Assembly (NCBI GenBank): GCA_973895155.1
Contig: OZ316896.1
Span: forward strand, 7,759,278-7,823,277
DNA: 64,000 nucleotides
DNA from: Marsupella aquatica
Lineage: Eukaryota; Plantae; Marchantiophyta
Direction of reading: 5' to 3'
Shown here: positions 5,927 through 63,186 of the stretch, in pieces
Layout of the letters: each line of letters begins with the position of its first letter
Numbering within the stretch: the first letter of the stretch is position 1
Notes under the pieces: model-generated
Databases searched by the model: none
The model's input: the letters and a program-made list of their open reading frames with translations, nothing else
Told to the model about the DNA's origin: nothing
Translations under genes and position numbers: made by a program

Positions 5927-5939
5927 TTGCATCCCGTTA

Positions 5940-10035: not shown

Positions 10036-10176
10036 GTGGGGATTCCTTTTAGAAGGCTAGAATCCATATTGTGTTATTTGAGTTTATGTGAAGAGAGTTT
10101 TACTTAAAAGCTTCATAGTAGTACTATTAGAGCATATATGTTACATTCTATATGTAGTGTGTACATTCTACAATGG

Positions 10177-27315: not shown

Positions 27316-27319
27316 TTTT

Positions 27320-27338
27320 TGGCGCTAGATGGAGGGGG
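27320..27338 (+). other. Primer binding site
   Basis: TGGCGCTAGATGGAGGGGG just after the LTR end; resembles the PBS of Tat-type plant elements. Confidence 0.8.
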
Positions 27339-27384
27339 CATTTCTTAAGCCGTGAGATATGAAGTTAGAACGGAAGCGTAGGTA

Positions 27385-31692: not shown

Positions 31693-31705
31693 AAGTGGGG
31701 AGCTA
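31693..31705 (+). other. Polypurine tract
   Basis: AAGTGGGGAGCTA before the TG at 31706. Confidence 0.75.
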
Positions 31706-34700
31706 TGTGATGCCTAGATAGGAATCACTCGGCCGGTTAAGTGGGTAAAGCAGGAAGGCACCCTAGGAACACCTTAGTATAGTGACAAAACAAGGAAAAT
31801 ATAAACAATTAGGGGCAACCATGGAACCTGGGCAGAGGCCGGAGGTAAGGCTGAGGGTGAAAACCCGATTAGGGTTAGGGCGCGTTAAGCGTCGGCGGCT
31901 AGGAAGGATCAACGGGAAGAAGGACCGGCAAAGGAGAGGGGTAAGGAGCACTTGCAGGAGATGGTGGCTCATTTGCGAGCACGAACTAGGCAGACGACTA
32001 CGGGAGGCCAACTACTGTCAGCTGCTTAGGCAAGCACTCGGGGAGAGAATAGATATCGACGATCGACCTAAGGAGGGTATGAGCAACGTCAATCAAGCGG
32101 CACATTTCTGGGGATGCCTGTTCGAACGGGCAACTGAGTACATCAAGACTTACGAGGATGAGGAGTCAGAAAGGGCAGCTCGAGAACGGCAGGAGCTCGC
32201 TCGATTGTGGGAGCTGCAGAAGACGACTTTCTTAGGAGGCGAACTCATCAAGGACGAGTTCCTGTGGACGCCTACTTCCAATCAACTCGACGATCTTCTG
32301 TTTTGCAAAGACAGCGTCGTCGGCATCCGAGAGGCCATCAAGAACTGCAACGACATACACTGGGAATTAAAGGGTAGCACGGAAAGGTGGACCCAGGCAA
32401 CGGTGCTAGGAGAAACCTCCACGGCAGCAGAGATGAAGAGGAAGGGAGCCGTCAACGATGAAGCCACCCCGGCAAAAAGAACGAGGTCGGCGGCACCAAA
32501 GAGGCCAGCCGAGCAGCAGAGCAGGAGGCAGGGAGAAGCCGAAGAGGAGGAGGTCGATCCCATCAAGGCCATTCCAACCAGGGATGACACCTGGAAGGGC
32601 TGGGCGGCAACCCTACCGGTGGAGGTGCAACTACATTTTGCACGGGAGGAGGATGCATGCTTTACGGCCATGCAGACCAAGAAGTACCAAGGCTTCATGG
32701 CCGGATCCGGCTTGGAGGCCTTTGTAAGATTACCATGGCTGAAGCCGGAGGTACCGGAGTCAGACCTATTAGAATTCGTGGGGTCATGGGAACCCGAGAC
32801 CAATTGCACGAGGATATATGGGAGGGATTTCTATCTTACTCCCAAGGTAATTGCCGAAGTGTTTGGCTTGCCGATAGGCAATAAGACCAAAGTTGATACC
32901 AAGAAGACCTTGCCTGACAAGGAGTTCTGGTCGTTCCCCGGGCCATCAACGAAGAATGGCTTCTTCCGGAACACCTGCACCAACCCGCACATAGGAGAGA
33001 TGATCGACTTCTTGCGGGTGACCATGCATTGTAACTTGCCGAGGGCAGAGATCGGCAAGGCACAGGTCTATCTGGCAGAAAGGCCAGACCCAAGCCGGGA
33101 CTACAACGGGTACCTCCTCAACCAATTGAAGAAGATCTTAAAGGAGGAGCAGCAGGTAATCGGCATGGGGAGCGTGTCGCGGCTTGGCTATCACATGCCG
33201 CTGTTGTGCCGGTATGCCAGAAGTCAGACTTTTGCCCCGGTACTTCCCCTGCAGGTAAGGGCACCCGAGGAAGCTCCAACGCAGAGGCCGTTGGCTGAGA
33301 AGCCTCAACCACCTGTTAATCCTACGATCGAGCAGGCGTTTAGGCCCAGGAAGGAGGACTTGCCGATGCAGCAACCAGGCATGCAGAGTCTGCTGAAACT
33401 ACTGGAGAAAGAAAAGAAATCGGCATCGGCAACAACAACGGCAACGGCAACAATGCAGGACACTACTACAGAGGTAGGCCTACACCGGCTCACAAGAGAA
33501 AACCCCTTTGCTGGAAACAAGGAGAGAATCAGGCCGAAATCCAAGCCAGGTGTTCGAATGTACGTGGGAACCTCAAGCTCCGAATCTGAGGCAGAATTGC
33601 CTGAAGCTCCTACCGACGAAGAGGAGAGGGAGAAGCCGGACGTCCAAGAGGTAGAGGAGGCAGTGGAGGACTGCAGCCATGATAATTCCGGCTATGGGTC
33701 GGACCATCACGTTCCAGGAGTAAGGACCTGTGGCCGGTTTGTCCCCACACTTCCAAGGGTAGTGCGAGGGGACCCCAACCAGCAGAGTAGCCCTGAGTCT
33801 CCCCCACCAGATGTTGCTCCCCCGAGCTTCGACGGCATAAAACAGACGGTGCAGGAATTTCAGGAGCGAATCAAGCAGGAGGAAGAGGCCGCCCTGGCTA
33901 AGGAAAAGGATTTACCAGGAGGAGATTGGCCGGAGGACATCAGGCGGCTAGCCGAAAAAGGAAGCAAACCTCTAGCCACGATTGAAGAGATCCGCAGGAC
34001 GGCGTGGGAGCAGAGGCCACGATGGGTGATGCCGATCACTTCTACTTACTCCACCTACGCTAAGAATAGAGCCATGGAGTATGGTGAGATGTGTGGGGAA
34101 CTTGCGCTCGGCATCTTTGGAGAGGAGTTGGAGATAGGACCCTTTTTCCATAGGGAGCAGTTGGAGAAGCACCAATTAGAAGAAGCGGTGGCTTTAGAGA
34201 GAAGCAAGAAGGACGAGGTCATTCGGCGGCTTAGGAGGATGGAAGCCGAGATTGAAGATCTAAGGGCGGCCAAGAAAGCCCAAGATGAACTGCGGATTAA
34301 ACGACATGAGCTGAACATCATGCAGGGGCAGTTGGACACCGCGCAGGCTGATAATCAGAATATCAAGGATAAACTGACTCAGACGCAGGAAGAGTTGGCC
34401 GACACGATCAAAGAGAGGGAGAAGTGGAAGCAAGAGCTGAAGAATACAGAGGAGGCCCACATAACAGCCAACAGCCGGGCCATGGCGGAGACCCAAAGAA
34501 AGGAATGGGCGTTGAAAGGGGAGCTCGAGAAAATCTGCGGAGCCCTTGAGCAGAAGGAGGTCGAGTTAGGGAAATCCTATCAAGGGATTATGGCGCTGCA
34601 GCAGGAGCTTGCGTCCCTGACGGCCAGCTTCAAGGCCGACCTAAGGGAGAAGGACGAGATGCTCGAACAGACTTACGCCAAGATGAACCAGATGGAGTCT

Positions 34701-36365
34701 GTCATCATTGCAGAGCTCGACAAGGAGCTAAGAGCAACCCAGGAGGAGAGGGCTACCTTGAAGAAGGAATTGGAGGAAGCCCACAGGGAGCAGGAGGAGG
34801 CCAAAAACGAGCTGGAGGGGGCACGTAAGGACCTGGATGAAACCCAAGAGGAGTTGGAGGAAATCACGAGGAAGATGGAGAACCTACAGCGGCAGGCCGA
34901 CAACCAAACAGAGCGGCTGAAGAAACAAGCCGCAGTATTTAAATGCTTAGCTGCAGCAGGTCCATCTCCCGTTGGGACAAACCAGTTACCAGGGGTGGTA
35001 ATTGCCGAAGGACAAGCCGCGCCACCTGCACCAGTGCCGGAAGTAAGTGGGAAGGGGAAGGGACCAGCTGCCGAGCCACCAACGAAGAAGAAACGGAAAC
35101 CTTCAGGGTCAAGGAGTAATACGACTTCACAGGCCGTGGTGATCAAGGAGGTAGACCCAGCACCGACCCCAGACAGGGTCACGGCTAAGGATCCAACTAC
35201 CCTAGGGGAAGGGGAGGCCGAAGCCGAGGGAGTGGCTGAAGCCGAAGCCGAGGGAGTGACTGAGGCCGAAGCCGTGGGTATTGCCGAGGCCGGTGTTGAG
35301 ACTGAAGCCGAAGGTGGACCCAGTCAAGCCGATGGAGAGTTGACTCAGTCAAGGGCAGGTAATCTGTCAGAGAATGAACCTACGGCAGTGGCTGAGGAGG
35401 AAGCTTTGGGGGCGTCCATTAAGGATCCACCACCGGTGTCGTGACGGTGCAAGGGCACCGTTCCTTTTAGGGAGGGCGGACGTGGAGGGAGGAGGCGTGA
35501 GTGGGCAGGGCGGGCGCGGATCTCCACGTTTAGGATTAGGATCAGAACCAGGAGCGGCCTTGACACTTAGCTTAGTGGGATTGCGGTCCCACTGGTAGGA
35601 GCAACACTTGTGCTCCTGCCTTGCTGTACATAGGTAGATTCGGGCAAGTAGATTACTGTTAAGTAGATTAGGCTTACGATGCAAAGAATGGCGGATCCAC
35701 TACCAGGATAAGTACCTGGGCAGCGGGGAGCTCAGGGCCTCTTCTTTAGCAAGTTTTTAGTTTGCACCAGCCGGGCTGGGATCAAGTAGTACGAGAAGCT
35801 CTCGGTTAGTCATACAGTGACCCTTGTGTATATTCATGTTTCCTCATGCCTAAGAGCTGAATAGAGTTGGCCTCACGGCTTAGTTCGCAGAACTTGTGTA
35901 TGAGATGTACTGTTTGTATGGCAAGTGCATGGTATGACTCAGTCAGAATGAGTCATTTTGCTATTTGTGTGTCGCATTAACTTGTGTGAAGAGTGCCCAC
36001 ATCAACAGAAGGAAGGAAAGTAAGCAGGGGAGTGAGAGTTGGATGTGTCGAGCTGAGAGAGGTCTTAGCGGCTTAACCAAGCCTATTGGGGATCATTCCG
36101 GCGGCGGAATCCAAACATACCTAACAAGATGGAGGGGAAGACAGGGGAAGACAGGGGAAGGCCTATATTAGGCCGGCTACGTATCTCATGACCCGATGAA
36201 GGATCTGTCCAGTATATGTGTGTAAAATGTTAATAGTAGTAGTAGAAGGTTAGCAGCGTCCCATGCCGCTAAGCCGCGGAAACGGCCTCGCCAAGCACGA
36301 AACCTGCGGGAATCGGCTTGAGCTGGGGGGTTCCTTGGGTTTAGGGAGCCATGGGACGCACCACA
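31706..36365 (+). repeat. 3' LTR (4660 bp)
   Basis: Copy of 22680-27315 with scattered substitutions and a 24-bp in-frame extra repeat near 35225. Confidence 0.95.
31782..35444 (+). CDS. LTR-encoded large protein, 3' copy
   Basis: 1220-codon intact ORF, nearly identical to 22756..26394. Confidence 0.85.
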   Translation: MTKQGKYKQLGATMEPGQRPEVRLRVKTRLGLGRVKRRRLGRINGKKDRQRRGVRSTCRRWWLICEHELGRRLREANYCQLLRQALGERIDIDDRPKEGMSNVNQAAHFWGCLFERATEYIKTYEDEESERAARERQELARLWELQKTTFLGGELIKDEFLWTPTSNQLDDLLFCKDSVVGIREAIKNCNDIHWELKGSTERWTQATVLGETSTAAEMKRKGAVNDEATPAKRTRSAAPKRPAEQQSRRQGEAEEEEVDPIKAIPTRDDTWKGWAATLPVEVQLHFAREEDACFTAMQTKKYQGFMAGSGLEAFVRLPWLKPEVPESDLLEFVGSWEPETNCTRIYGRDFYLTPKVIAEVFGLPIGNKTKVDTKKTLPDKEFWSFPGPSTKNGFFRNTCTNPHIGEMIDFLRVTMHCNLPRAEIGKAQVYLAERPDPSRDYNGYLLNQLKKILKEEQQVIGMGSVSRLGYHMPLLCRYARSQTFAPVLPLQVRAPEEAPTQRPLAEKPQPPVNPTIEQAFRPRKEDLPMQQPGMQSLLKLLEKEKKSASATTTATATMQDTTTEVGLHRLTRENPFAGNKERIRPKSKPGVRMYVGTSSSESEAELPEAPTDEEEREKPDVQEVEEAVEDCSHDNSGYGSDHHVPGVRTCGRFVPTLPRVVRGDPNQQSSPESPPPDVAPPSFDGIKQTVQEFQERIKQEEEAALAKEKDLPGGDWPEDIRRLAEKGSKPLATIEEIRRTAWEQRPRWVMPITSTYSTYAKNRAMEYGEMCGELALGIFGEELEIGPFFHREQLEKHQLEEAVALERSKKDEVIRRLRRMEAEIEDLRAAKKAQDELRIKRHELNIMQGQLDTAQADNQNIKDKLTQTQEELADTIKEREKWKQELKNTEEAHITANSRAMAETQRKEWALKGELEKICGALEQKEVELGKSYQGIMALQQELASLTASFKADLREKDEMLEQTYAKMNQMESVIIAELDKELRATQEERATLKKELEEAHREQEEAKNELEGARKDLDETQEELEEITRKMENLQRQADNQTERLKKQAAVFKCLAAAGPSPVGTNQLPGVVIAEGQAAPPAPVPEVSGKGKGPAAEPPTKKKRKPSGSRSNTTSQAVVIKEVDPAPTPDRVTAKDPTTLGEGEAEAEGVAEAEAEGVTEAEAVGIAEAGVETEAEGGPSQADGELTQSRAGNLSENEPTAVAEEEALGASIKDPPPVS

Positions 36366-38793: not shown

Positions 38794-39783
38794 GGGGTGG
38801 TTAGCGAAGGGTGGAAGCAGGCGCCGCGCGAGGCAGTTAAGTCAGCGGCATCTTTTGGTTAGGTGCAACGACAGAATGGCTGTCATTAGGCGCCGATTAG
38901 CGGCAGTAGGAAGAATTAGGGTCGGATCAGTTAGGATCAGCCAATGTAGGATGGAGTCCATCAACGAACTAGATTTTTGTCAGTAGGCTTGGCCGCTGCC
39001 ATCCCGGTTGGCACCCTTGTCATCGATGGTCAACCAGTCAGTGCGGCACGGCCAGTAGTCAGAAGGTAGTTAGGCAGTAGGTAGTATCCCGGAAGGTAGT
39101 ATCCTCCGGTTCTCTTCCGCAAACTGTAGTATTTAGGCTTCCCCTTCCGCTAGGAAGGGGGAGAAGGCTTAGTTATCTCAGCAGAAGAAAGGTGAGGCAC
39201 GGGGAGTCCCGGCCTGAGCAGGGTCAGAGCGCACCAAGGAGTGAGAGCCAGAGTCAAGCTTGCTGGGCAAGTGCAAGGCGGGGCCTCGTAGAGACTGGGC
39301 ATCTACTGCCGTTGGGCCTACTGACCCCCTTTGAAGTCGAGTCAACCATGTAAACTGATGCTTCGCTGAGTAAATGTAGTCTTTTCCCTCGAATGTTTCC
39401 GCAAGTAACTGGTGTTGTGAGTATGCTTTGTCTGGGCAAAGGCACCATTTTAAGGGATGTACCGGGTGCGGACTAATGGTAGGGATTGCCACCCATTGTA
39501 TGTCACAAGGTTCTATCGCGTCGATGGCTTGAAAAGCCCCAAGCCGGGAGTTAGTCCGAGTCACTAACTGAGGGAGGATTCCAACGGTGGAAAATAAAAG
39601 ATACCTATGACTAGTACAAATTGCTTAAGTGTTATACCAGTAAGTATATCGGCTTAGCCCGACTTAGGGCTAATCGGGGCCACTACACACCTCCTTGCCC
39701 GAACCCTCACCCCTACTGGTGGTCGAGGTCGCGCCATGGCACTAAACTGGATTTAAGGCCCAGGTTAGGGACGCGACAATTGC

Positions 39784-39960: not shown

Positions 39961-40016
39961 GTGAGTATCACCCTTTTCAATTCCTGAATAGACTTCTACA
40001 CTAGCGTCTAGCGCTA

Positions 40017-40215
40017 TTATTATTAATTTTATTTTTTATTCATCTTTATTCCGCGTGAACCCCACGGATGAGGGAACCAGTAGGCCCAAGGCAAAAGGGC
40101 CACAAGGCCAAAAAGGACAACAACAGATGTATCCCTACATACCAGAGGGGAACAACACCACAAGACCAATCCGAGCCAATTCAGGAGCTAAGCAATGATC
40201 CTAATACTCCATGCT
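40017..40215 (-). mobile_element. Probable LINE 3' end with A-rich tail
   Basis: Minus strand ends AATAAAGATGAATAAAAAATAAAATTAATAATAA. Orientation matches the LINE ORF2 ending at 52118, which is separated from it by the CACTA element. Confidence 0.5.
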
Positions 40216-41050
40216 ATAGTGTTATTCGATAGGATTTACATCGGATCCCTTCAGGAAAATTGACGCAAAAATTTCTATCATCTGATGCTATTCCCAACGC
40301 ACTTTGCGATGCGTAAACCATCGCATATTGACCATCGGACTTCCATCGGACTTTCCGATATTTTGGACAACGGATGTTCCGTTGTAATGTGTTACGGATA
40401 TTTTATGTCCGATGTAAAATGAATCGGATAATTAACATGCGACAGCACACGACGATTTCCTATGTCCGATACTATTTACATCGGGATGTCCGATATATTT
40501 GATATGGCAATTTGCGAAGTAATTTTTATCGGACATTGCGTTATTTATAATAACGGAAAGTGCGTTAGTTTTTGTATCGGACTATCCGATATGTTTAAGA
40601 TGGGAACCCTCAAGGAGGGGTTCGATGCATTGGGGATGGGAAAGTTCGAAGGCAGCAGCATCGGACACTGCTATATTACCGATGCAGATGGTAACGGACT
40701 TGCAACGGATTATCAAATGTTCTGGGGGTGGAATACAGGGTTTCATGGGTGGTTTTTTGGGGGTTTGGGTATTGGTTTAGGGTTGAAGGTGACATACACC
40801 AATTAGGAACCAAAGATAATGCTATAAACACGAGGTCAAAATATCATATTCAAAAAGGGGATCACCCTAATATGTACAAAATGGATTAGGCCTACTGGGT
40901 AGACCCATCCTGGTCGTGATGGCACGATAGAAGATGTAAAGAGAGCTTTGACTAGAGACTACACTGAGCTATATACAAGGTACCTCCTAGTGAGTGTCTA
41001 ATCAAAGCTGTCTAGCACTAGATACCCGGCCACCTAAATGCAACTAACCT

Positions 41051-43430
41051 CTAAAAAGGTGTGTTGCGTCCCTTCTTCTTTGGGCGAGAACGAAGGGGTG
41101 GTACAGGTCTAGCATCATGAGAGCCCTCCTCCCTCTGGCTGCCCACAACCGTGGCAGCCACCTGCTCACCAGATGGCATGGGTTGGCCTGATGCCGGCCT
41201 AGACCCTAACCCACTAGATGCACCGCTAGGGTGGTCAGGCAAGGTAGATGTCCAACCAACCCCCGACACGGCAGAGTGAAAGGATGCCTCAGCTCCTCCC
41301 GCAGACCTGCTAGAGTGATGGGATGGTGCGCCGACAGATCTTGTGGGTGGCCCATGTCGTGCTGTACTCCCACCAGACTCACGAGATGGTGCGCGCCCTC
41401 TAGATCCACCATCCGGCACATCGCCACTACCTCGTCGGGAAGGGCCACCTGCACCAGATACTCCTACGCAATCGCCTCGTCCCATGCCATCACCTCTACT
41501 ACCCCCTGAGTGCCTGGGCCCCGCACCCCGTGATGCTCTAGAGCGATGGGAGCCCACACCATCAGCAGCATGTGACCCACCCCTCCCTGCTGATGGGGCA
41601 ACAGCACCAGATGGGGCAACAATACCTCGGACCTGAGGAGTAGGGGTGACTGTGGGCACCCTCCCCAACCCTGCCTCAGCATCCTGCTCAGAATCTGAGT
41701 CCAACTCCTCTGACCCAGACCCCTCCTCATCCTGTGCAATAGGGTTTAATTGCAGTTAGAATGAATGGTCCCGACCATAACTCTAACAAATTCATGACAA
41801 CCTTAAACATTATATCAACCTAGGGTGAACACTTACCTCTCCCAACTCATCCTCAAGGTGGCGCTTTAGAGCGCGGGGTCCATCCGTCTTTGCCAAATTC
41901 CTCTCCAACGGCGCAATAGGGCGACCATACTCCCGCTCCTGAAATTTAAAGATCCAAACCATAGAGGCCAGGTTAATATCAAATCTAGTATTAGCGTGCC
42001 CTACCCTAAACCAAGCCACCCTACATAGCCCTAATGTAACCTTAAACCATAGTTCACCCTAACTTATACTCTACCCTAGTAAAAAATTAATGTTAAGTAC
42101 GTTCATTCAAAAATTTAAATGTTATGCCGAGGGGTCCGATGCAAAGTCCGATACATCCTGCATCGGACGTCTATCGGATGCGTAACAAGAAAAATGGCAT
42201 GACACGGTGTCCAATGTTGCTTCCGATGCAAAACCTATCGGATGAGTATCGGAAAGAACAGGCCCGAGAGCAAAATTGAGTTTTGCAAAGGGTTTAAACA
42301 AAAGACATAAGGCACAAACAACTCATTCTTCGTGCGAGGAGTCAGGTGATCAGGGAGTCGAGGTGGGGAGGAGAGGGAGGGCACTTACAAACTCAGCCTT
42401 CAATCGATTGGAGTCGCCTTGCCCCATCCGGTGAGTGATGGTTGGCCTCCCCTGCACTCTCTCCAATGCTGCTATGATGTGCCTTGGTGGTTTGGGGAGT
42501 CTTGCTGCTTGAGCTGCCCATTGTTGCAGGTTCTGTTGAAGGGGGAGGATATCAACATTCTCCCCAGCCTTTTGCTTCTCCTCTGCCAGCCTAATTTCGT
42601 TGTCCCAATGTCTTCTTTTCAGCCAGGCACGGACTGAGAGTTCCTCCTCAAGCCAAGCCGCCCACTCATCCGGGGAAACATCGTCTGGACAATCCTCCTC
42701 CCTGATCACCTCTGCATCCACTGCCATATCTCCAAGGTACTTTCTGAATTTCTCTCGCTGATGATTGCGCATGTCTGAGAGTGATGCTGAAATTCATTTG
42801 TTTAGGAACCTGTCATCAATGTAGGCCCCGTTCCTGAACCGTTCCTTCACCTGCTCTCTAATTCTCAATCTCTCTTCCTCCTTCTTCTTGCCCCAGTAAT
42901 CCAATGGCCCCAAATTGGCCCTCAGCACCTGCTTGAATTGGCTTTAGATGGTAGCTCTTAGGCAATGGACCACCACCCGAATTGAGAGCTAGCTCAGGCC
43001 TGAGAGCTCTCTCTGCCTCCTTTCGCCTATGCTCCTCCAATCGCACCTTCTCAATTGCCCTAGCTTCTTTTCGAAGCTTTTTCTCTCATTTTCTTGGAGA
43101 CAGTGTCTCCTCTGCATCCCCCTTGCCTCTCTTTGCCTCTTTCTTCCTCTTCTTTGCCTCCTTCTCACTTGCAATGCTTGCAGCAGTAGTCTTCTCTGCC
43201 TCACGCCGAGAGGCATCAATCAGCGTTTGGAGGAGTGGGGCTACTCTCTCTGCATCCTCCACACTCAGCCCTGCCTTGGCCACAAAAATGTCCCTCATAA
43301 CTTCATTGTATGGCTGGGACGGTCCCCCTTGCTCTCCACCACCACCTGATCCCCCTTCGTCTCCCCCACCACCTGATCCCCCGCCCCCTCCATCTCTCCT
43401 CCTCCTTCAAGCTCTCCTCCTTGATCCAGC
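41051..43430 (-). pseudogene. TnpA-like accessory gene of the CACTA element, multi-exon and decayed
   Basis: ORFs 43086..43298, 42350..42772 (CPDDVSPDEW..THRMGQG), 41810..42019 and 41051..41704, with GTAAGT donors near 42385 and 41835. Confidence 0.5.
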
Positions 43431-44629
43431 TTCAAAAAATTTGAAAAACACCAAGTGCGAAACGGGGCCCGACGCGCGGGTCTTCGTACCTACATCGGTT
43501 CTTTTTTCCAAAACAAAACCTGCTGCTTCCGATTCTTTCTGTTTCGGACTTTGCGAAACCAAAGGTATCGGACACGCAATCGGACTTTCCGAAACTATCT
43601 GCTTCGGACCCCTCGTCCTTTTCTTGTGGCCGTGTATTTACCAAGTGTGGCCCGTTTCCTATTGCATCAGACCCCTCATGAAGTTATATCGGATACCTCT
43701 TGGCTTTCCCAAAGGGGGTCCAATATAATGTTTTGAATTTGGGTTGGGTATGGGATTGGAGGGTTTAGAGTATAAGTTAGGATATTTAGGTTTTGTATGG
43801 GGTAAGGGCACATGGTTGGAGTTATTATTTGCTTTCATATTTGAATCCGCGTTTTGTAGGGCTCTACATATGTGAACGGGACAGTGAACGTGTCATGCAT
43901 GTAGAGGGACCTCTTGCAAGTTTCTTTGTTGCGGAGAACAAATTTTGGGGTTTGTACCGGACTTCATAATTTTTTTGATAAGCTATGGTCTTGCATGCTT
44001 AATATATTGGGCTCTAATTAATGATGCAATTGTGTATAGAGTCTTGGTGTTTTAGGGGTGGTTACGTTGTGGTGATGGGAACTCAATACTATGATATGTA
44101 ATATAGGATCAAGAAAATACTACAAGAAGTTTTTGTATGAACCATTTTCGGGTGAAAGCCTTTTGTTTCATTTCTTTATAGGGGATTATGGGTGTACGTA
44201 GAGGTTCTATTAGTATAACATTCTACCTTTTGTTAGGATAATATTAAACCCCTTCATTAGGCTAATCTTTGTGTTTGGATTTGATGTGTAGTACCTTGCT
44301 TTTGGAGGGGTGGTTAACTTTTTTTGAGGGGGTAGGGAGGTTTCGATTTTGGACAATGCACTATGCATGAAACTGTGCATCCAGGAGGTATGATGTCCTC
44401 TTGCAAGTTCCTTGCAAGTTTAGGGATGGTTGTGGTGATGGGAACTCAATACTGTGATATATGATAGACAAAATACTACAAGAAGTTTTTGTACGAACCA
44501 TTTCTTGGTGAAAGCTATTTGGATCATTTCTTTGGAGGGGTTTATGGGCTTAGGGTTATGGGGTTTTACTAGGATAAGGTTACACCTTTTCTTAGGATAA
44601 GGTTCAACCTCCATATATTAGCTAGGCTA

Positions 44630-45481
44630 ATGGTTGTGTTGGATTTGATGCAGAGTACCTTGCGTTTGGAGGGGTGGTTCAATGTTTGTGAGGTCTCTCG
44701 GCCCGAGGTTGTGACTACTAGAGTCCTACGTACACGACCACGATCTGGTAGACGTAGACGGCAGTATGGACCACTGGACCAGGTAGACAGACGAGAGGAG
44801 GTGTTAGGTACTAGTGATCGACCAGCCGGTAACGTAGATTATATTTGCATTGAGGGCAAGTTTGGACTATCCTATCTCACTGGTAGGGCTGCCAAAGTTT
44901 TGAAGGACTTTTCTCCAAGTCTCTTCAAATTTCCAGATTTTATTCCTACAGATGAACCAATTCAAATATGGGGTCGCCCTTGGATAGTGAAGGCATCCTC
45001 TATTGGTCCTGATATAGGATATGGTCTTTTTTCTTTGGAGGATATTGTGGTCCCTCCAAAGCCATGGAGACGTGGTTATGATGGAGAGCACCTCTTTCCT
45101 TACATTGGGGCTGTATATAACTCCAAGAGTTGGAATATTTTGTTGCGTCAACACCCAAGTTGGGGGGTGTATGCATTGAGGATGGACTCAGACCCGGATG
45201 AGGTCTTCACTAGGCCGTGGCATTGCCGGATGATTGATGGTGACCCTATTCGGAACGGTAATTTAGCAGGGTACATCAATAGTACCACAGGTAGAGATAG
45301 AGGTTTGGAGGCTAATGTAGAGTGGATTCAAATGTTTGGTCCACCTAGACATCCATATTTTGTGAAACATATGGACGACCATATCATGACAGTAGCTGTT
45401 AGGACCATTAGAGCTGGTGAGGAGTTATTGTGTGAGTATGAGTGGGATGCACCAAAATTGTCCTTGCGTTGTCGTCCATGA
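44630..45481 (+). CDS. SET-domain protein (putative lysine methyltransferase)
   Basis: VKASSIGPDIGYGLF (motif I), GNLAGYINS..AN (NHS-equivalent lacking His) and AVRTIRAGEELLCEY (ELxxDY motif). ORF is intact, 283 aa. Confidence 0.8.
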   Translation: MVVLDLMQSTLRLEGWFNVCEVSRPEVVTTRVLRTRPRSGRRRRQYGPLDQVDRREEVLGTSDRPAGNVDYICIEGKFGLSYLTGRAAKVLKDFSPSLFKFPDFIPTDEPIQIWGRPWIVKASSIGPDIGYGLFSLEDIVVPPKPWRRGYDGEHLFPYIGAVYNSKSWNILLRQHPSWGVYALRMDSDPDEVFTRPWHCRMIDGDPIRNGNLAGYINSTTGRDRGLEANVEWIQMFGPPRHPYFVKHMDDHIMTVAVRTIRAGEELLCEYEWDAPKLSLRCRP

Positions 45482-47400
45482 TAGTTTCTTGGACTTACAT
45501 ATTTTATATATATATGTCAGTTTATTTTACATGTTTATATGAGAATGATGTTGTTCAACAGTGCATGTGTTGATGAGATTAATTAATTGATGTTGTATGA
45601 TAGAATCAATATGTAACGCCTGATATTGGGGTAATATCACGAGCTATGCAACAACACCTTGTTGAGGCCATGGTGGCCAACCGTGGGCATGAACCGCAAA
45701 GGCAAGAGGATGGGGTACGACATGATGGTGATGATCCTATCCAAGACCATCTTGATGAGGAGAGGGCCATGGATGAGCTCATGGACCAATTCTATGATGA
45801 TCACGATGACATTGGTTTGGAGGACACTGGTTCAACCCATGAAAGGACTAGTCATCCACATCCTTCTAGGGGGTCCCAAGACAAGCAATGGGAGGAGGCA
45901 CAACGTCATGCCCGTACTCGCATATTCGAGGGGAGTAGGTTATCTCGGCTCTCATCAATAATGTTGTTGCTCAACTTGCAGCAAAGACATGGGGCAAGCA
46001 ATCTACTTTTGGATGATGTTTTCCGTACCTTGCATGATCGTATTTTGCCAGTAGGCAATGCATTGCCAGCCTCTTGGAAAGAGGCTAAACAGGTGTTGAG
46101 GTCCATTGGCCTGAAGTATGAGGTGATACATGCATGTGTGGATGATTGCATTCTTTTTAGGGGTGAGCATGAAAATGCCACTACATGTCCTAAATGTCAG
46201 AAGCCACGGTACCGTGATGACATGTTGACGGGGAAGGTACCGCAAAAGGTTATGAGGTACTTTCCTCTTATCCCTCGATTGCGACATCAATTCCGATGTG
46301 CAGAGTTGGCTGAGATGATGGTATGGCACTCACAAAATTGTCCTGATATGGTTGTACCCTCTAGTGCCATGCGGATGATGGTTGACTCTCCTGCCAATCG
46401 ATTTGTAGAGGATAGATGGGGAGAGTTCAAAATTGACCCACGACATGTTCGACTAGGCTTGGCAGCAGACGGTATCAGCCCTTTTGCATTGACAGGAAAA
46501 GCCAAACCATATTCGGTGTGGCCAGTAGTGTTGACAAACTACAACATCCCTCCTTGGATGGCCATGAAGAAAGGTCACCTACTACTCTCCATGATTATTC
46601 CGGGTCCTAAGCAAGTTAAAAAGATTGATGTGTACTTGCAGTCATTGATTGATGAGTTGATACAACTGTGGAGAGGAGTGGATTGTTATGATGGATGTCA
46701 CAACACAAGAGGTTTATCCCGCGTATTTACTCTAAAGGCCATCCTTATGTGGACCATGCATGATTTACCAGGTATGGTAAACCCTTATTTCCTCTAGTAC
46801 CTAAACCTTGTATTTAATTGCAATTATGCAGATTTTTGCCTTGATGAACCTTATTTTATTAATGTGTTTTCTATGCACTGGGCAGGGTTTGGATATGTTT
46901 CTGGATTGCAATCATCAGGCTATCGAGCTTGCTCTACATGTGGACCCGATTTGGAGGGGGTGGCCAGGCCCAAGTCAAGTACTCTGCAAAAAATTGTTTA
47001 CATTGGTCATACTAAATATCTTCCACCAGACCATCCTTGGAGGAGTGATCCATTCCTTTATGATACTGATGAGGGCCAACCTGATATTCGTCCTCAACCT
47101 CAGCGGAAGGATCCAGCATATTGGAGAGAGGTATGGGGGAGAGTTCAGGATCCGAGTGATCCATTACCATTATTCAGATGTGGCATGACCCGTTTGTCTG
47201 CATTGTCACAATTGCCATATTGGTCAGATATGCCCATTAATCACTTGTTAGACCCTATGCACATTGAGGGGAATGTGGGAAAATCATTGATTCGCCATCT
47301 ATATGGGGAGAAAAATAACAATTGGAGAGAAAGTTGTGAGGAGATGGGGATGCATGGTCTTTTGGGTTTTTGGCCATCTTTGGACCCCCCTGGTGCTCCC

Positions 47401-49788
47401 TGTCACGCGATTGACATGGGTCTTAACACCAAAAACGTCACTATGGGTGCCAAAACCATCTCCTTGTACCTGAGGATCACGAAGGGATGTTGTGAATGCC
47501 GGTAAACACCAGTTTATGCCCTTAACACCAGACTATCATAGCAAGACTCTATCACACATCACCCAAGCTCAATCCCAAGGAACCGAGGTTGGGGATCAGA
47601 TCAGAGCTCATGATAGTTCTGGTGAGAAGGGGTCTTCATATCGGGCCCGTACACACAGGGCCTAGCGCTACGGTGCGCATAGGTCTATACATATGCTTAC
47701 TGTCATAGGTATGTTTCTATTCCGCCGCCGGAATGTACCCATAAACCAGTGACTCCTGACTGATTCCCGGCTTAGGGACTTCTAAGCCATTGCCCCACCA
47801 CTCTGCCATTCCACTCTCAACAATCAGAGCTATGACAGTCCTCACCCAGCCCGCTTCAATGCACCCGGTACACCTCTCAGTGGCGCTGCTAGTTCCATCA
47901 TACACTCAGATTGCCTCACACACACACACATCCATGAGAGAAATGAGGCCTGAGAGGAAAACTCAATTAGATTCAAAGATGTGCACAATAGTTCACTGAG
48001 AACACTTGATCCGAACACTAGGGCCGAAGGCTGTCTCCTCCAGATTGTGACGTGCTTGCCCTGCAAGCCCCGTGCTTGCCATGCAAGCTCAATCCTGAAC
48101 TCAACCTCCTTCACTGCACTTCATTCTTGGGGGCACATACAGATCTCACACCTCCAATTCAGAACGTCAAGTTACGCATGCATAGTTGACTCGACTTCAA
48201 AGCTGGTACCAGGCCTAACGGCGATCTACCCCAGACTGCAATGAGGCCCGGCCTCACGCTTGCCCTGCAAGCTCAGCTTTGGCCATAGATCCCTTAGTGC
48301 TCTCCACCAGACAAAGGCCGGGACTCCCCATGGGTCACGTAGCCTTGCCAGACTGAACTGTAAATGCTCCTCCTGCTGCCCCTTAATCAGTACCTCAGCC
48401 TCCCTAATGTGCCCACCGCAAATCGAATTGAAATCCTCCCCACAGTTTACAATCACCAATACATCACCTATCACCAAGGCTCTGTATCGGGGGAAAAGAA
48501 CCCAGTTGTGCTGCCCGCTAGAAAGAGCCACAATCCAGCTCGCAAACCTAGCAACCCGTTGCTGTGAAGCTTGGCTGATTACTCCCTGAGTATAGCACAA
48601 CCAAGCTCTCCCCAACACGCAGCGTCCAAGTCCAGCCTTGCTTGCACAGAGCTCCTCCCCGCTACTCAGTCTAAGTGAGATCACACAACTGAAGTCCCCC
48701 CCTCTGCCTCTACCGGAGGGATGCTCTATATACTCTCTCATTGAGCCCAAATGGGTGGATGCTACGCTGTTGGAGCCCCATCCCAGCCCTAATAGAGCCG
48801 CCACTATCTCTAACTACTGAACCCTAACTCGCAACTTTATTTCTATCTCGAATTGGCTATGTACTTCGGATTCGGCCCTCCTCCATAGTTTTTGCGAGCT
48901 TGCGCCTCCTCTCCCGATTTCTCTATTTAACCATTTTCTGCGTGGATAGCAGCGTTGGAAGCGGCTTGAGCTCCTCTTTCCAACGAGGTCAATTATAGCC
49001 GATTTGGTCAAATACACAGAGAGTTATGCCCCCGTAACCGAGAGGGGGTACTCACTGTTGCGCTAACCCGAGTTACATAGCTAACCCGAGTTCGGCTAAC
49101 CTAGCTATCCTATCTAACCCGAGTAGAGCTAACCCGTGGTCTCGGGTTAGGCCGTCACCCGCTATCCGCTATCCGCTATCCGCTATCCTAGCCTAAGCTG
49201 AGCCCGAACCCGAGCTTACCTATGCTAACCTGACCCCGAGTTAAGTCTAACCCGGGATCAATCTAATCCGAACCCGGGTTAAGCCTAAGCTGAAGCCGTG
49301 CTTACCTAAGCTAAGCTGAAGCCGTGCTTACCTGAGCTAAGCTGAAGCCGTGCTGACCTAAGCTAAGCTGAAGCCGTGCTGACCTGAGCTAAGCTGAAGC
49401 CGTGCTCACATAAGCTAAGCCGTGGTCGAGCTTGGGTTAACCCGAAACTGAAGCCGAATCCGCTAATTCCGGCCACAAGTTAACCCGTCACACTAATCAG
49501 GCCGTATCTTTCTTAATACACCTCCGTTTCCCGAGTGTTTTATATCGATTTTACTCGCCTTGACCAGATCTTTCCAATGCTCTTTACAGATCCGGATTTG
49601 GTGACATATTGAAAGAGATATGGTCGCCGACCACCTGCGACATAGCTTTTATTTCCCTACTCTTAACGCCATGATTGCCCTTATTCTTGCCATCTTGCTA
49701 ATTGTTATGCAATATCAATAGCTACTCCTTGCATACAGCAACCTACTTAATCAGATTACAAAATAAGGACCATGTCATTGGCGTCACA
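47401..49788 (-). mobile_element. Solo LTR (2388 bp) inserted in TnpD
   Basis: TGTCACGC...GCGTCACA ends; CTCCC TSD at 47396-47400 and 49789-49793. Orientation inferred from the internal ORF only. Confidence 0.85.
49060..49460. repeat. Compound tandem repeats inside the solo LTR
   Basis: AACCCGAG motifs, GCTATCC x4, and a 25-bp CTAAGCTAAGCTGAAGCCGTGCT unit about x5. Confidence 0.85.
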
Positions 49789-52117
49789 CTCCCCCTAGCA
49801 TCCATCCTCCTTGGGTTTTGACAATGGCAGAGCGCATTGAGTTTCGCAGACGTATTGGGTTGATGAGGTTTCCCACAGGTTATGGTACCAATCTTAGGAA
49901 GGCATTTGGGGGGGAGGATTCTCCAAAATGGCCATCTTTCTTGAAGACACATGATTATCATCGGTTGCTTGAACATGTTCTTCCAGTTGCTATTATTGGA
50001 TTGGGTAGTGAGGAACTTCGTGATGCCCTTTGGTCATTGGGTAAGCTCTTAAGATGGGTATGTCAAAAGGAGGTACAGGAGGATGACATTGCTGCTATGG
50101 AGATATTTGGAGTAGAGGTTGTCTGCAAGTTGGAGAAGGCACTCCCTCCCTCATTCTTTGATGGTCAGGTTCATTTCCTCATACATTTAGTGCGCGAGGT
50201 TGCAATTGCAGGCCTAGTACATTGTCGATGGATGTATTGGGTAGAGCGTTATATGGGGGTGATGAAGTCATATGTCTTTAATCGTGCTAGGGTGGAAGGT
50301 AGCATTGCGGAGCGTCATCTTGGAGCAGAGAGTATGTTTTACTGTACAAACATAGTTGCCACACTAGATCCTAGTGCTCCTAGGGGATGGATAGATGAGG
50401 CGGCACGAGAGGCTGACTACGAGGATGATAGACTCACTGGGGCATCTGGAGAGCGTCTCATAGGCTCAGCAGAGCGTTTACAGCTCACAACATTTATGTT
50501 GTATAACTCACCCGAGGTTGTCGGGGAGTGGACAACATTTAATGAGGAGGAGAAGCAAAACAGTCGACGCCCATAGTTATTTCCCAAGTTTTACCCATAC
50601 ATGAAGGAGAAGTTGTTAGAAGTGGATGCCCTGGTGGGTACCGGGGAGAGTGTATTACACTACCCAAACGTGACAGATAAACTTCGTACCTTGATTCATG
50701 GTCCACTACTTATAGTCACGACTCGGACTGCCATGTGGTCAAAGGGGAGACATTTTCGTGTGGAACGACTTGATGAGAAGAGGGCAGCTACACAGGATTG
50801 TGGGGTGATGGGTTGGTTCACCCAAGATTCCCAGAGTAGCATGTCAGACATGAATCCCATTCGCTCCACCGTGGCCCATTATGGGAAGATTGAGGAGATC
50901 CTAACAGTGAAATACCATGCACATACTACTTTGGAGGAAGTGGTATTCAAGTGCAAATGGTTCAAGATGAATCTTGTAGGCCACAATCGTACTTGTGAAG
51001 ATGATGCATGCGGTTTTACTCGTTTGAAGACATCTGCAAATAGTGTCATCAGTTCCAACTGGAGGTCCTCAGATCCCTTTGCCTTCCCACATCACCTTGA
51101 GCAATGCTTTTACCTACCCTATCCCAATGACCCCGAGTGGTCCATTGTTATGCCGTATATTCCCAGATCACGGTCCATAGTCCAAGAGAGACCCAACGTA
51201 GTTGTAGTGGAAGATAGAGACATACCCCCCACGAGTTAGTATAAATTGTAGACCCCACCATCTTCATGTATATTTTTACCGGCACTATCTTTTTATCGGC
51301 ATTCTATGATTTTTCTAATTGTCCACAATTTCATGCAGTATACATATCTATTGCTTAAAGTATGCCCCATATCTGAATCCATTAATTCCATGCAACCTAT
51401 ACATTGTAAAACACTAAAGTCCCATATGTCCCATTCAAATACCATCGGAAACATATCGGACACACATCAGTACTGCCAAAGCAAAAAACCCCTTCCCATC
51501 CTCAAAGTATCGGATTTTCCGATACTATAAAAATCGGAAGCCACTATCTGATACTCCACAGATCGGACGCTTAAGCCCGCAGCCGAGGAGGGGTCCGATA
51601 GAAATTTCAACGGATAGTAACCGATCCCTCAGCCTTTGCAAATGATTTCCGTTGTAAATAGTATCGCAAACATATGTCCGATACATTTTGTATCGGTAAA
51701 TGTTCGAAACCAAACCTATCGGAATTAGCTTTCGATACTATTATTATCGAACGTCTGAAAAACATGTCGGCTCTCAATTTGCGATACAGGATGTTTCGGA
51801 CATTGTCCGATATGATGGGTATTGGATAAAGTTTTTGATACAAAACATATCGGATAATAATGTCCGATTTGGGTAGTATCGGAAGTTCCATAGCTGGGAG
51901 TATCGGAAGTTTTCCGTTGTGTTTAGTATCGCAGCGCGTTGAGAAACGCGTGTTTTTAGTATCGGAAAAATGCCTAAAATGTACTAGTTCAGCCAAACCA
52001 GCACATGATTAAATCATCAGATGAACAACAGAGCATTGAAGTATCTAAATGGGTCACTACATTTAATGAAGATCATTCACCGTCATGATCCTGTCCGATT
52101 CACTGGTCATTGGGATG

Positions 52118-53557
52118 TTAGTTTCTATACCCTACCCTAAGTAGCCTACGTTGCTCTGCCTCCACCATAGTCCTAGCCTGGGAAAGCCGCCCAATCTTAC
52201 GGCCAGAACAAGACAAAGCAGCCACAGCCAACAGGTGATCAATAGTCTTCGTGCATATATTAATCTGGTCAAAAACGCGGTGTCTGGTCCGATCAAACGT
52301 TTGGCCATTCCTGGCAAGCCACAGGGACCACAAAGTTTGGTACATCAAGAAAACCTGTAACGTATGCAGAGGGGTCTTCCCCCGCATCGACAACAGGAGA
52401 TGCACCAACCCAAGGGCCCGGTTAAATAATCTCCCATTCAGCCAGCCCTGCATTACCAGCCAGCAAGCCCCCGCATGGCGGCAGTCAAAGAAAATGTGCG
52501 GGATAGACTCCACCACCCCGGAGCAGAGTGTACATACCCCATCAGACTTCCCAATCCTCAGAGCTTTGGAGCCAGAAAATAAACCCTGGGCAAGGATGCG
52601 CCATAAGAAGGTTCTGGCACAAGTGGAGAGATCTGCAGTCCATATAACCTGCCAGACCTCACACCATTCAATCTCAAGCAAGTTCACATTCCAGATCCTG
52701 TTAAGCCTGCAGAAATCAGATCCCTTGGGTCTAAGCAACTCAAACACCTTGAGATTGGGAAGCCCAAATTTAGTCAGGGGCACACTGTCCTTATCGATCC
52801 ATCTCCATAGTCTTGCCCCTGAGTCCCCAGCTGTTTCTCTGTAGATAGTTATGTGAAGAGTGGAAATAAAGGATAGACAAAATCTCCTATCGTCTTCCGG
52901 TAGACCCCTCAGTCTGAGCATCTTCTCATTCATATCCATCCACTGATTATTCAGAGCACACCGCAAATCATTGACTTTCCTGACACCAAGCCTTCCACAG
53001 ATCTTAACTACACCCAAAATGTTGTCCTCAGGGAGAGTGTAAAAGTCCAATAGACAGCGCAAAACATCTTCAATCCCCCAGTGTCCGGGGATGGCCGCAG
53101 TGCCAGGACAAAGGACCAGGTTCTCCCGTACCAAGGTTCTCCCGTACCAAGGTCTCCCGTACCAAGGTTCTCCCGAACCAGGTTCTCCTGTACCAAGGTC
53201 CAGGCACACTTAGTAGAGCGTCAGAATGACTACGGAAGTCCTTCAATCCCAGGCCACCATCCACCTTAGGTCGTGCCAGCTTCTCCTAGGCCACCAGTGG
53301 AATTTTCTTCCCCCCCTGTTTGTTAATCCCCCAAAGAAAAACACGACTGAGTGCAATCAGCTTCTTTGCCAGAGAAGCAGAGGATCGCAGAAACATCATG
53401 TGATATACAGGAATGGCAAGTAAAACATGTTTGATCAGCAGCACCCTTCCAGTGAAAGATAGAAAACAGGTAGACCAAGATGATAGTCTGGCTTCAGTAA
53501 GATCCAAGCCAAAGGGAGCACCCAAATATTTCTGTACCACTCCTCTTTCACTAATAA
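52118..53557 (-). pseudogene. L1-type LINE ORF2, 3' part
   Basis: QKYLGAP, SFTGRVLLIKHVLLAIPVY, GGLGLKDF, FLWRIL, CTLCSGVVESIPHIFFDC (zf-RVT) and LWSLWLARN. Confidence 0.9.
53100..53207. repeat. 108-bp insert of 16-bp tandem repeats with 10-bp inverted ends
   Basis: GTACCAAGGTTCTCCC about x5, bounded by GTGCCAGGAC and GTCCAGGCAC. Confidence 0.65.
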
Positions 53558-56500
53558 CATGGAGCCTTAAGGGATGAGTCCAAGGCCCGAATTCCTTTTT
53601 CAAGATTTTCATGATTTTTCCAAAAGTGCTTTAAAAAAACATATAAAAATGAAACATGTTTTGTAAACTTTGCTATTATAATTCTTTCAATGAAAATCTT
53701 GGGATATTTTCAACATCATTTTCACAATTACCAAAAACAACAAATCCATACTTAATTACAAACATAAAATTTATGGTCTTTGATCTGAGTTTGTGCAAAC
53801 TCAAAATCTTAAGTAGAATGCCACTATCCATTGTAGGTGTGCATCTAAGTCCACTAAATCTCTAAATACAATGCAACTCAACTAATCTAAGGCTTCTCTA
53901 ACCTCCTCTCCACTTCTAGAAGATCCTTGCTTCAATCCGAGCTAGCTCAACAGTTACATCTTCTGTTGCACCCTCTACTCTGGTGCGCTTCACATCCTCC
54001 CCACTCTCTTGATCCATACCAATATTGAAATGTACATCGATTTTGATTTGGGCAGCCACCTGGCTTCATGAAATCATGAAGTCGGGTTCTCACCTGAAAG
54101 AAGCTACCTGATCCTCCTAGCTCCCTCCAGTTAGTTCCCCCAAGCTCGATAGTTCTCTTTGCTTCTGCTCCCAATCCACCCACCTTGGACTCATTTTTGA
54201 CCCAGACCAGGCCTGGTCAACCCTTAATCCTCCCTGGATCAATCTTGATTCCCGATCGGCCCTCCCCCGGTCCCTAATTAGTGAAACCCTTCCCCAATCC
54301 TAAACCCTCCCCCCCGATCTTTTACCGCTCCCCCTCCAATGTTTGATCATCCCCTTGATGCTCGACTGCCCTCCTCCGGTGCTCCATCCCCCTCTGATGG
54401 TTGATCGTTCCCCTGACGGTCGATTGTCCACCCTCCTCCAATCCCTAAATGGCCCCCCTTCCAATCCCCTTCCAATCCCCTTCCACTCCTTATCAATCCC
54501 ATTCCAATCTCCCTTGCTCCCTCTCCCATCCTCCACTCGCTCCCCCTTCAATCCTTAGGTCTGCTCGATTGAGATCTAGCTCTCAAGCTCAATTTTTCAC
54601 AAATTATCCCTGATCCTTTGTGGCTATCTCCCCTAATTGGAATCTGTCTCATTTAATCAGAGTCTACCACAGCTAATTCAAGCAGCAGTCAATCACAGTA
54701 GAAGCTCATTCAATAACCAAATCTGAGAAATCAAAGTCCAACACTCAGGTGAAATCCAGCAATCAAAGCATCAACATCAAACCAGGAATTCAAAATTTCA
54801 GCTTCAGGATTTTGAAGGCGACAGCAGAGATTAGCAGTCGTTCCCAGACCTTAAATTAGGCCTGACCTCAATTGGCAGCTGATGACAGCACCTTGATGCG
54901 ACTTGAGCTTAAGTGAGGGGCAATAGCCCTCTCCAGGCCGCAGCCTCCTTTGCCATAGCCAATTGGCTACCCTAGCCCTTTGTAGGTCATTGAGCTGGCA
55001 ACACAGTCTTTGCCCTTTGTATTTTGTCACAACCAGTTTTGGGCTTCATGAATTCATGAAGCTTTTGGTTTCTCAGTTTCCCAGGTGGTAGCCCCTTCAT
55101 GAATTCATGAAAGAGAATAAGGTATCTTAGGGAGAGAATCTCCAGAATAGCCAAAAGAAAGACTTCAAAAGTGAAAGAAAAGGGGATAAAGACAAACCAC
55201 TCAATCTCAAGAAATGCAAAAAATATGGTGAAATAAAAGCAAAAAGCGCTCCAAATGCCAATATTCCAAAAAGCATATGGAAACAGTAGGTCAACAAGAC
55301 AAACTCTCCAATCATGAGTCATGGAAGTACGTATCTTGGTGGGCAAAAACATATGGGTTTTTAATGCCAATGTTTATCCTCATGAAACGTGGGAATGCAA
55401 ACCTAAAAATGATTTATTTTTCCAAGTAAACTGGATTGCGTAGTCCAAACAATATTGTGAGATTAATAATTGAGCAATCTAGTAAAGGGAGGTATGGGGA
55501 AGGGAAAAGGCCCAAAGAAGCCCTAAGTTGCCCAACAAGCCAAAAAGTCAAAGGACTAAGATACCACCTAGTAGCCAAGAAGACTAATTAATAAAGTGTT
55601 GTGTCATAAAAAACTTTTGGAAATATAATTTTTCAACTTTTTCCTTGACTTGTTCATCTATGTCATGAAAGGATTGGCTTAATTATTGAAAAATGATTTA
55701 AGCATTTCTTATTCATTTAAATTAGAGAAAGGACCAATTAAGTTCAAATAGGCGTCCTCTATTCATGAAAACATGTTATTTCATTTGTTTCAAGTTAAAG
55801 GGTTTTTGCTCTTTTGTGTGTTTTGTCTACATTAAGTTCTTCTCACTCATTTGAGAGCACTAGCCTCCCCGGGCGTTAAGTTTTATCCCATGTGGTTGAG
55901 ACTAGTGTTAATTTGGGTGTCCGACTCAAGGTCTTCAAGATAGTGGACAGTTGAGAAAGCGGACTCATGAATTCATGAAGACTGATTGTAACAAGTTTCT
56001 AAAAACACTAAGTCCTGTCTCAAAACCAGATTGTTGTGCATTTTGGAAAGGTCAAGCGTTGCAACAAGCACCAAGGGGAGAGAGTGAATATGGTCGTCTA
56101 ACATCTCTCAAATTCCAGGAAGGTGTAAGAGCGCTGACACAAGCGGGGACACAAGAAGACCTACTGAGGCTGCAAATAATTCCGGCAAGGAAAGGATCAT
56201 CACAAGAAGGTCACCCGGGCACACTTGCATCATTTGGCTGAGATTGGAAGCCAATCAATATCAAGAAATTAACTTGAAGGGGAAGAATAAGAATTTGGAG
56301 GAGGTCCCCAAGAAGAGGTTGGGGGAGCCCAGTTGGGTCAATATGTTTGTGAAATTCAGATGTTGCCTAACAAATCAAACTCAGGCATGTTGAGAGCCAG
56401 GTTGAGAGTAAAAGAGGAGCCATTGAGTGATCTGATTTGGATCAGAACGGGTACATCTGGAAGCGTAGGTGGTGAATTTGTGGAGATATCATCTTCCATT

Positions 56501-56678: not shown

Positions 56679-56846
56679 TATTATGCATCAACCATGGACA
56701 CACATACACCAGCAAGCTCACTTCCTTCATTACTTTGTGGGAGAGTAAACTTCTCCCTATGTAGTACATGGTATATCGGCAGTTATGTAACCTCCGTTTC
56801 CCTACATTCTAGGGTAAGTAGGGTTAGGGTTTTAGCCCTTATAACA
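56679..56846 (-). repeat. 3' LTR of copia
   Basis: Identical to 63187-63354; preceded on the minus strand by PPT AAGGGGGAG (56847-56855). Confidence 0.95.
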
Positions 56847-63172: not shown

Positions 63173-63186
63173 TCGTGCTGATAACG
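63173..63186 (-). other. Primer binding site (Bianca type)
   Basis: CGTTATCAGCACGA immediately inside the 5' LTR. Confidence 0.8.

Follow-up and report, generated by a model that had tools for sequence, protein, structure and literature searches.

The maize En/Spm element, a CACTA transposon, makes TnpA and TnpD from one transcript via alternative splicing. SET or anti-silencing genes are carried by other transposons (PMC12730594; 10.1101/2025.02.11.637652). In red algae, the PAG2 gene of the Plavaka elements (EnSpm/CACTA) is described as an N6-adenine DNA methylase fused to a SET domain, and SET-capturing Helitrons are reported in the same preprint (10.1101/2025.02.11.637652). A histone methyltransferase gene of the SET type is listed for HarbingerS and for Phytophthora MuDR families (Kojima and Jurka, Repbase Reports 2014, via PMC12730594). 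In Arabidopsis, VANC of the VANDAL elements (MuDR) is described as inducing DNA hypomethylation (PMC12730594; 10.1101/2025.02.11.637652), and VANDAL elements are the only ones that the consulted parts of the preprint describe as shown to modify their own sequence (10.1101/2025.02.11.637652). In oomycetes and red algae, SET genes on transposons have been noted from annotation. In bryophytes, transposable elements are reported to lie largely under H3K27me3 in Marchantia and under H3K9me2 in Physcomitrium (10.1101/2022.10.24.513474).

I found a SET-domain ORF ahead of a CACTA transposase gene in the window, which is the whole 64,000-nucleotide stretch of Marsupella aquatica DNA analysed here. Comparison with its relatives indicates that this ORF is a standing part of a bryophyte CACTA family and not a stray capture. 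Like Plavaka PAG2 as described, the family is a case of an EnSpm-superfamily transposon with an accessory SET that has long been kept, while most copies are degenerate. In contrast, PAG2 is a separate gene in elements of 17-19 kb, whereas the bryophyte SET, which has no methylase domain, belongs to an element of about 9 kb, lies beside a TnpD of the classical plant type (PF02992/PF13960/PF13952) and seems to have its first exon in common with the transposase; the SETs themselves are compared here by description. HarbingerS and the Phytophthora MuDR families resemble the bryophyte CACTA in their transposon-borne SET gene and in the anti-silencing role proposed for it, but they and the Helitrons belong to other transposase superfamilies, the MuDR cases are from oomycetes, and no transposase-shared exon is described in the parts of the sources consulted. 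The maize element would be matched by the bryophyte family in the use of one CACTA transcription unit for a transposase and a regulatory protein; maize TnpA, however, is a DNA-binding protein and not an enzyme, whereas the alternative bryophyte product would be a SET protein, with the other conserved gene on the opposite strand. VANC, as described, provides a functional anti-silencing model, since it is a plant DNA-transposon accessory protein acting on element chromatin as is proposed for the SET protein. It differs in not being a SET protein and in having a shown activity, while the bryophyte SET is known from sequence and a structural model.

The features of the locus, by their positions in the window, are as follows.

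40230..40700, no strand: cluster of ATCGGA/TCCGAT repeats in left subterminal position; a CACTA inverted repeat was not found at this end.
41051..43406, minus strand: broken second gene, transcribed away from SET and TnpD, with about 30% identity in relatives.
44066..44693, no strand: non-coding repeat in two copies spaced by about 360 bp (44066-44329 and 44429-44693, 77% alike).
44630..45481, plus strand: stop-free ORF of 283 aa, a chimera of 21 repeat-derived codons and a SET exon remnant.
44693..45481, plus strand: SET exon remnant (codons 22-283) with an Arg-rich stretch, the SET core at about residues 68-273 (GxG, NxxGYINS, GEELxxxY) and the stop.
45482..45603, plus strand: spacer with 74% AT, closed by a conserved phase-0 acceptor, TAG/AAT (the slash marks the splice site), in frame with TnpD.
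45604..47355, plus strand: 5′ part of the TnpD transposase gene (PF02992) with a likely intron at 46772-46885.
47356..49807, no strand: insert of about 2.4 kb in TnpD, including a TG...CA-bounded piece (about 47401-49491) like parts of the neighbouring retroelement.
49808..51239, plus strand: 3′ part of TnpD (PF13960 DUF4218 and PF13952 DUF4216), interrupted in frame by a stop at 50574-50576.
51440..51990, no strand: right subterminal cluster of ATCGGA/TCCGAT repeats, plus a degenerate end candidate.

The original prediction of a stop-free, 283-aa SET-domain ORF at 44630-45481 was reproduced in its coordinates, motifs and Pfam SET score. No comparable stop-free stretch arose in any of 2000 shuffles of 44001-46000. 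The motifs lie at residues 130-134 (GYGLF), 210-218 (GNLAGYINS), 228-229 (AN) and 260-270 (IRAGEELLCEY), and the SET core, at about residues 68-273, is complete. In the PF00856 profile check that had been proposed, the ORF scores 25.1 bits, above the curated cut-off of 22.4. The predicted spacing also holds, as the first in-frame ATG of TnpD lies at 45646, 165 bases past the stop of the ORF. A pre- or post-SET cysteine cluster is absent as stated, and no histidine follows N217 in the ORF.

The ORF had also been called intact, and this has to be withdrawn. Codons 1-21 are non-coding repeat: the ATG at 44630 comes from the second repeat copy (44429-44693), the deletion junction lies at about 44693, and the first exon together with about 50 codons is gone. 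The closest relative (protein P0004) is 80% identical to the ORF, with the alignment starting only at residue 22, and has 52 residues ahead of that point that are without a counterpart in the window; the N-termini of three further proteins (P0002, P0003 and P0010) are similar to that of P0004. Contigs from three of four public runs continue past 44693 into further repeat and not into SET codons, while one long public-run contig joins the SET part at 44692 out of 99 other bases. Five near-fixed differences fall in the SET part among the 40 best-supported of about 1560 difference rows, and all five are nonsynonymous (I74V, K77R, K89E, I111V and D223G). At K77, the other nine sequences of the alignment have arginine. 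The repeat-derived start, the N-terminus of P0004, the contigs and the nonsynonymous changes thus show the window copy as 5′-deleted and drifted since insertion, and it is likely a dead copy of a CACTA element that has lost its front end. An intact SET between damaged neighbours had been envisaged; the neighbours, TnpD and the minus-strand gene, are indeed both broken, but the SET copy between them is itself 5′-deleted and drifting.

Is the SET ORF found elsewhere in this family? A profile search gave 62 relatives among 6646 candidates. The 14 relatives with a species name are all bryophyte hypothetical proteins, from Calypogeia (2), Sphagnum (4) and Riccia sorocarpa (8); the closest of them is a Calypogeia fissa protein with 68% identity, and one Sphagnum cluster of relatives has 360 members. 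Exhaustive searching across 1.84 billion representatives yielded 93 matches, and the weak ones that were inspected carry the family motifs. PF00856 is matched at E<=0.01 by 51 of 64 SET members. The Atlas search with the domain returned SET clusters, and one of them, from Streptophyta, may represent this family itself. Two distant SET subgroups (P0070, P0122, P0127 and P0130; P0110, P0120 and P0134) were seen without genomic context and may point to the origin of the family.

The genomic neighbourhood was compared in 38 metagenome loci with a SET match, 21 of which have at least 600 bases downstream. TnpD comes next in all 16 of these in which the SET match extends to the C-terminus, and the five loci without TnpD are exactly those where SET breaks off early. 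In Riccia sorocarpa, three predicted gene models (P0098, P0129 and P0182) join the SET sequence to Transposase_21. In the window, Pfam identifies the CACTA TnpD domains PF02992, PF13960 and PF13952 on the 3′ side of the SET ORF; the adjoining transposase is thus of the PF02992 and not of the Harbinger type. Of the 38 loci, 36 look as if they belong to a single moss family, the exceptions being L001 and L028. Since the copies compared are 84-99% alike and one locus (L011) reads like a named Sphagnum magellanicum protein (P0034), the moss loci count as one lineage, and the SET-TnpD linkage therefore represents three independent lineages (moss, Riccia and the window), not 16. Two Calypogeia proteins separate in a quick tree: one joins the window and the other joins the Sphagnum family, each with support 99. 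Thus, several old subfamilies coexist in one genome. The tree was made by a quick method from 65 rows remaining after filters (112 full-length cores, near-copies removed, two loci added), and its bacterial outgroup is a long branch.

As the original prediction had anticipated, the SET sequence occurs in other CACTA copies and species (moss loci, Sphagnum, Calypogeia and Riccia). Its view that the ORF does not look like a recently captured exon of a canonical plant histone methyltransferase is likewise supported, as no canonical host methyltransferase was recognised among the matches. The hallmarks of the canonical plant classes (SUVH, ATX, ASH and CLF) were not found; Pfam finds only SET, and the PDB profile matches have E>=6.5e-4. 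The N6-adenine DNA methylase domain (PF01555) is absent from the 64 SET members and from 13 longer proteins. Three alignments found no SET relative in viral contigs. The sole match in a prokaryote genome, with 28% identity, is an ordinary bacterial SET with NHSC and was rejected as a close relative.

It was then assessed how the SET sequence evolves. Pairing L001 with each of four copies from the main moss family gives dN/dS values (Nei-Gojobori) of 0.28-0.34, and the bootstrap upper limits are 0.44-0.53. The window compared with three loci gives 0.35-0.42, with dS near saturation. Within the main moss family, dN/dS is 0.24-0.87 for SET (six pairs) and 0.58-0.78 for TnpD (five pairs). Singletons in the SET of 15 copies of one moss family comprise 68 nonsynonymous, 18 synonymous and 3 stop changes, and many SET copies of the moss family contain stops. 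This is the usual pattern of transposons, in which the transposing lineages are constrained and the inserted copies decay. A captured host exon or a chance frame carried as a neutral passenger is a highly improbable explanation. The near-neutral drift within one moss family and the stops in many copies would fit such a passenger, but TnpD drifts alike there (0.58-0.78), as dead insertions should, while comparisons between subfamilies give a dN/dS of about 0.3 and mosses and liverworts share the motifs at about 40% identity. Neutral passage is thus largely refuted for the family and holds only for the window copy since its insertion. The purifying selection between subfamilies agrees with the expectation that the SET does not evolve neutrally, and it is almost certainly selected transposon cargo.

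Full-length relatives start with a CxCxxC..H..G motif (9 of 158 proteins, including those of Sphagnum, Calypogeia and Riccia), and the moss loci have the motif on an exon of its own. In 14 of 18 motif-bearing loci, a phase-0 donor, an intron of 111-118 bases and a phase-0 acceptor precede the SET exon; the remaining four were not parsed by the splice pattern. Thus, the idea of a stand-alone intronless ORF does not hold, since the native gene has an upstream exon and an intron. A second acceptor, TAG/AAT, follows the AT-rich spacer in 15 of 16 TnpD-bearing loci and is in frame with TnpD in 13; in the window, it lies at 45603/45604, also in frame with TnpD. Because the donor and both acceptors are phase-0, both SET and TnpD are in-frame partners for exon 1. 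These splice sites suggest that exon 1 is probably spliced either to SET or across SET to TnpD. In the simplest reading, SET would be an alternative terminal exon within the first intron of the transposase gene. One promoter would drive exon 1, whose CxCxxC..H..G is a likely zinc motif, and splicing would choose the SET exon with its own stop or the TnpD acceptor. The products would be a zinc-motif-SET protein of about 340 aa and the full transposase. The classical TnpD N-terminus is the transposase-associated cysteine domain PF13963. This domain was matched by one of 13 proteins (E 0.031; 14.9 bits, below the cut-off of 27.7) and by neither of two exon-1 peptides. The own in-frame ATG of TnpD sits just past the acceptor, so TnpD could also start without exon 1.

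The three Riccia gene models that unite the SET sequence and TnpD could also mean that the stop codon of SET is spliced out and that a SETMAR-like SET-transposase fusion is made. The stop, however, lies after the last SET motif both in the window and in full-length moss copies, and two of the models (P0182 and P0129) drop the C-terminal GEELxxxY, because of which they look like a gene predictor joining adjacent exons. A search for longer SET proteins, in which 7997 candidates were scored, gave one fused model and is weak evidence on fusions. Such a fusion is quite improbable, and alternative splicing of exon 1 is the preferred reading.

The remaining parts of the element are less well preserved. 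The apparent TnpD stop at 46795-46797 is inside the likely intron (46772-46885), whose position is common to the moss copies. The ATCGGA/TCCGAT repeats number 12 in 40000-41000 and 17 in 51000-52500, and they also occur at 42000 and 43500. The left end CACTACAACAACAG was found in moss loci with three different flanks. In the window, terminal inverted repeats were not found as a matching pair, and none of the loci yielded a right terminal repeat or spanned both ends of the element. The minus-strand second gene is kept, with about 30% identity, in 10 of the 12 loci long enough to show it. It stands head-to-head with SET/TnpD (41051-43406, minus strand, in the window; 1079-2227, minus strand, in L008) and has a Gly-rich start and a Lys/Glu-rich helix. 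Neither Pfam, run on the broken window and L008 pieces, nor the Atlas gave a family for it. PF03004 and PF03017, which I take to be the TnpA families, had no match in the Pfam scan of the window or the L008 pieces, which are broken. The upstream gene had been named TnpA-like; it is on the minus strand, broken and conserved, and since neither Pfam nor the Atlas assigns it a family, the name stays unproven.

What might the SET protein do? A single-sequence PDB search with the SET ORF gave no match, and an earlier model from 10 sequences (pLDDT 40) was discarded. The model from 64 homologs has a pLDDT of 91.7 and a pTM of 0.87. Its best Foldseek matches are MLL1, LegAS4 and SETD8 (E 1.5e-7 to 1e-6), and in VIA, EZH2, Set1, SET8 and SET7/9 are tied (Z 11-12, rmsd 2.3-3.1, 120-135 residues). 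PR/SET domains (PRDM9-like) and minimal viral and bacterial SETs resemble the bryophyte SET in having a compact fold without pre- and post-SET zinc clusters, and PR domains deviate in the NH motif. They differ in sequence, as the identity in structural matches is just 14-24%, or 14-20% for viral SETs. The conserved residues of the family are G130 (58/61), G132 (59/61), N217 (56/63), E265 (56/56) and Y270 (52/53). The histidine of the NH motif is found in none of 63 rows, where the position holds S (56), N (4), G (2) or I (1). Beyond the SET core, there is no post-SET region except a conserved aromatic residue (W272 in 47/60), and Pfam recognised no chromatin-reader or pre- or post-SET module in the SET members and longer proteins.

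These residues bear on whether the protein is an enzyme. The catalytic tyrosine, assigned here by motif position, is described as central to SET/PR catalysis (PMC4919437). The H/RxxNHxC motif is thought to matter for cofactor binding, while some PR domains without the full motif are reported to be active (PMC4146578). The fold model and its conserved residues suggest with reasonable likelihood that the SET protein is a SAM-binding, lysine-methylating enzyme. A catalytically dead reader or decoy that blocks histone tails or host silencing complexes is distinctly unlikely. It would account for the family-wide lack of the NH histidine and of post-SET cysteines, and a precedent is described in the PR domain of FOG1, which is without the conserved cofactor residues and does not bind AdoHcy (PMC4146578). 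In contrast, the GxG, the asparagine, the GEEL knot and the catalytic tyrosine (52/53) are kept, beyond the expected needs of a dead scaffold.

For an active enzyme, the substrate cannot be read from the fold, because H3K4, H3K27, H4K20 and non-histone enzymes tie. A methyltransferase with a non-histone target, such as the transposase, the second protein or a host silencing factor, would tune transposition; this seems unlikely. In its favour, SET7/9 and SETD8 score equal to histone H3 enzymes in the fold comparison, the SET protein is without a recognised chromatin-reader or pre/post-SET module, and a single transcript would give rise to both it and TnpD. On the other hand, the published transposon SET genes are read, in the sources consulted and from annotation only, as histone methyltransferases. 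Another target would be a repressive mark. The viral enzyme vSET acts on H3K27, and a vSET-like writer could limit the element's own activity or silence host genes. EZH2 shares the top VIA rank and EZH2 chains top the sequence-profile search (E 6.5e-4), but the ranks are tied, the profile matches cover only generic motifs, and PBCV-1 vSET reaches just E 0.84. A repressive writer is thus improbable.

The preferred reading remains a histone-modifying role in favour of the element. The zinc-motif-SET protein would methylate lysine, most likely on histones, at or near the element, and its mark would oppose H3K9/H3K27 silencing and keep the element transcribed. The window would then hold a likely dead, 5′-deleted copy of a bryophyte CACTA element in which a spliced SET exon encodes a predicted methyltransferase marking the chromatin of the element for expression; this is a plausible reading, held with some reserve. 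The whole chain, in which an active SET protein marks the histones of the element and counters silencing, is put forward with slightly more reserve. The full form, in which moss and liverwort CACTA elements make their own histone methyltransferase via alternative splicing, the zinc motif targets it and a SET without the NH histidine writes an anti-silencing mark, is more tentative still.

Among the titles and abstracts listed by the literature searches, none deals with a bryophyte CACTA that carries SET, and Repbase Reports or the supplements of the Bostrychia preprint could already describe one. The word CACTA is absent from the main text of the Riccia sorocarpa (PMC11735767) and Apopellia (PMC12885004) papers. 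Transposons with SET are thus known in kind; what appears new is a land-plant variant in which a CACTA transposase gene has the SET nested inside it. If the proposed role is true, it would be a transposon-encoded histone writer in land plants, directly testable in Marchantia or Physcomitrium. A histone-writing escape from silencing is open to such a test because the family is compact, full-length Sphagnum members such as the 343-aa protein CAK9871772.1 exist, and model bryophytes are available in which transposable elements are silenced by H3K27me3 or H3K9me2. The shared first exon, if true, would couple the amounts of enzyme and transposase. The window adds a liverwort subfamily with the same TnpD acceptor. 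Many annotated SET domain-containing proteins of Sphagnum, Riccia and Calypogeia are likely transposon copies, which would inflate counts of host methyltransferases.

Further elements and repeats were seen in the window. The TG...CA-bounded insert in TnpD (47401-49491) is likely a solo LTR; it carries a 26-bp tandem array (49259-49458) and, when inverted, is similar to sections of the nearby retroelement (39192-39350, 27039-27073 and 36089-36123). A direct repeat of 4.66 kb (22679-27315 and 31705-36365) is 98.9% alike, and each copy has a coiled-coil-rich ORF of about 1220 codons without a clear Pfam family. A gag ORF (27382-30378; PF03732, zf-CCHC) and an integrase remnant (30878-31717) lie between the copies, and the scan of ORFs around 22679-36365 found no reverse transcriptase. 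The region may represent a tandemly duplicated retroelement with an additional long ORF. Inverted arms at 19585-19611 and 40002-40028 (81%) flank the 20-kb retroelement region and could be the ends of a larger element; their motif occurs again at 19593, 19699 and 19800. A Ty3/Gypsy element (3683-9301) has gag, protease, RT, RNase H and integrase, and the LTR-like repeats around it (2187-3524 and 10036-11507) are 98% alike, each with a 22-bp tandem array. A LINE-type fragment (52118-53630, minus strand; zf-RVT PF13966) is split by a 15-16-bp tandem repeat (53115-53216). The Ty1/Copia element on the minus strand (56679-63354) is likely young, since its 168-bp terminal repeats are identical.
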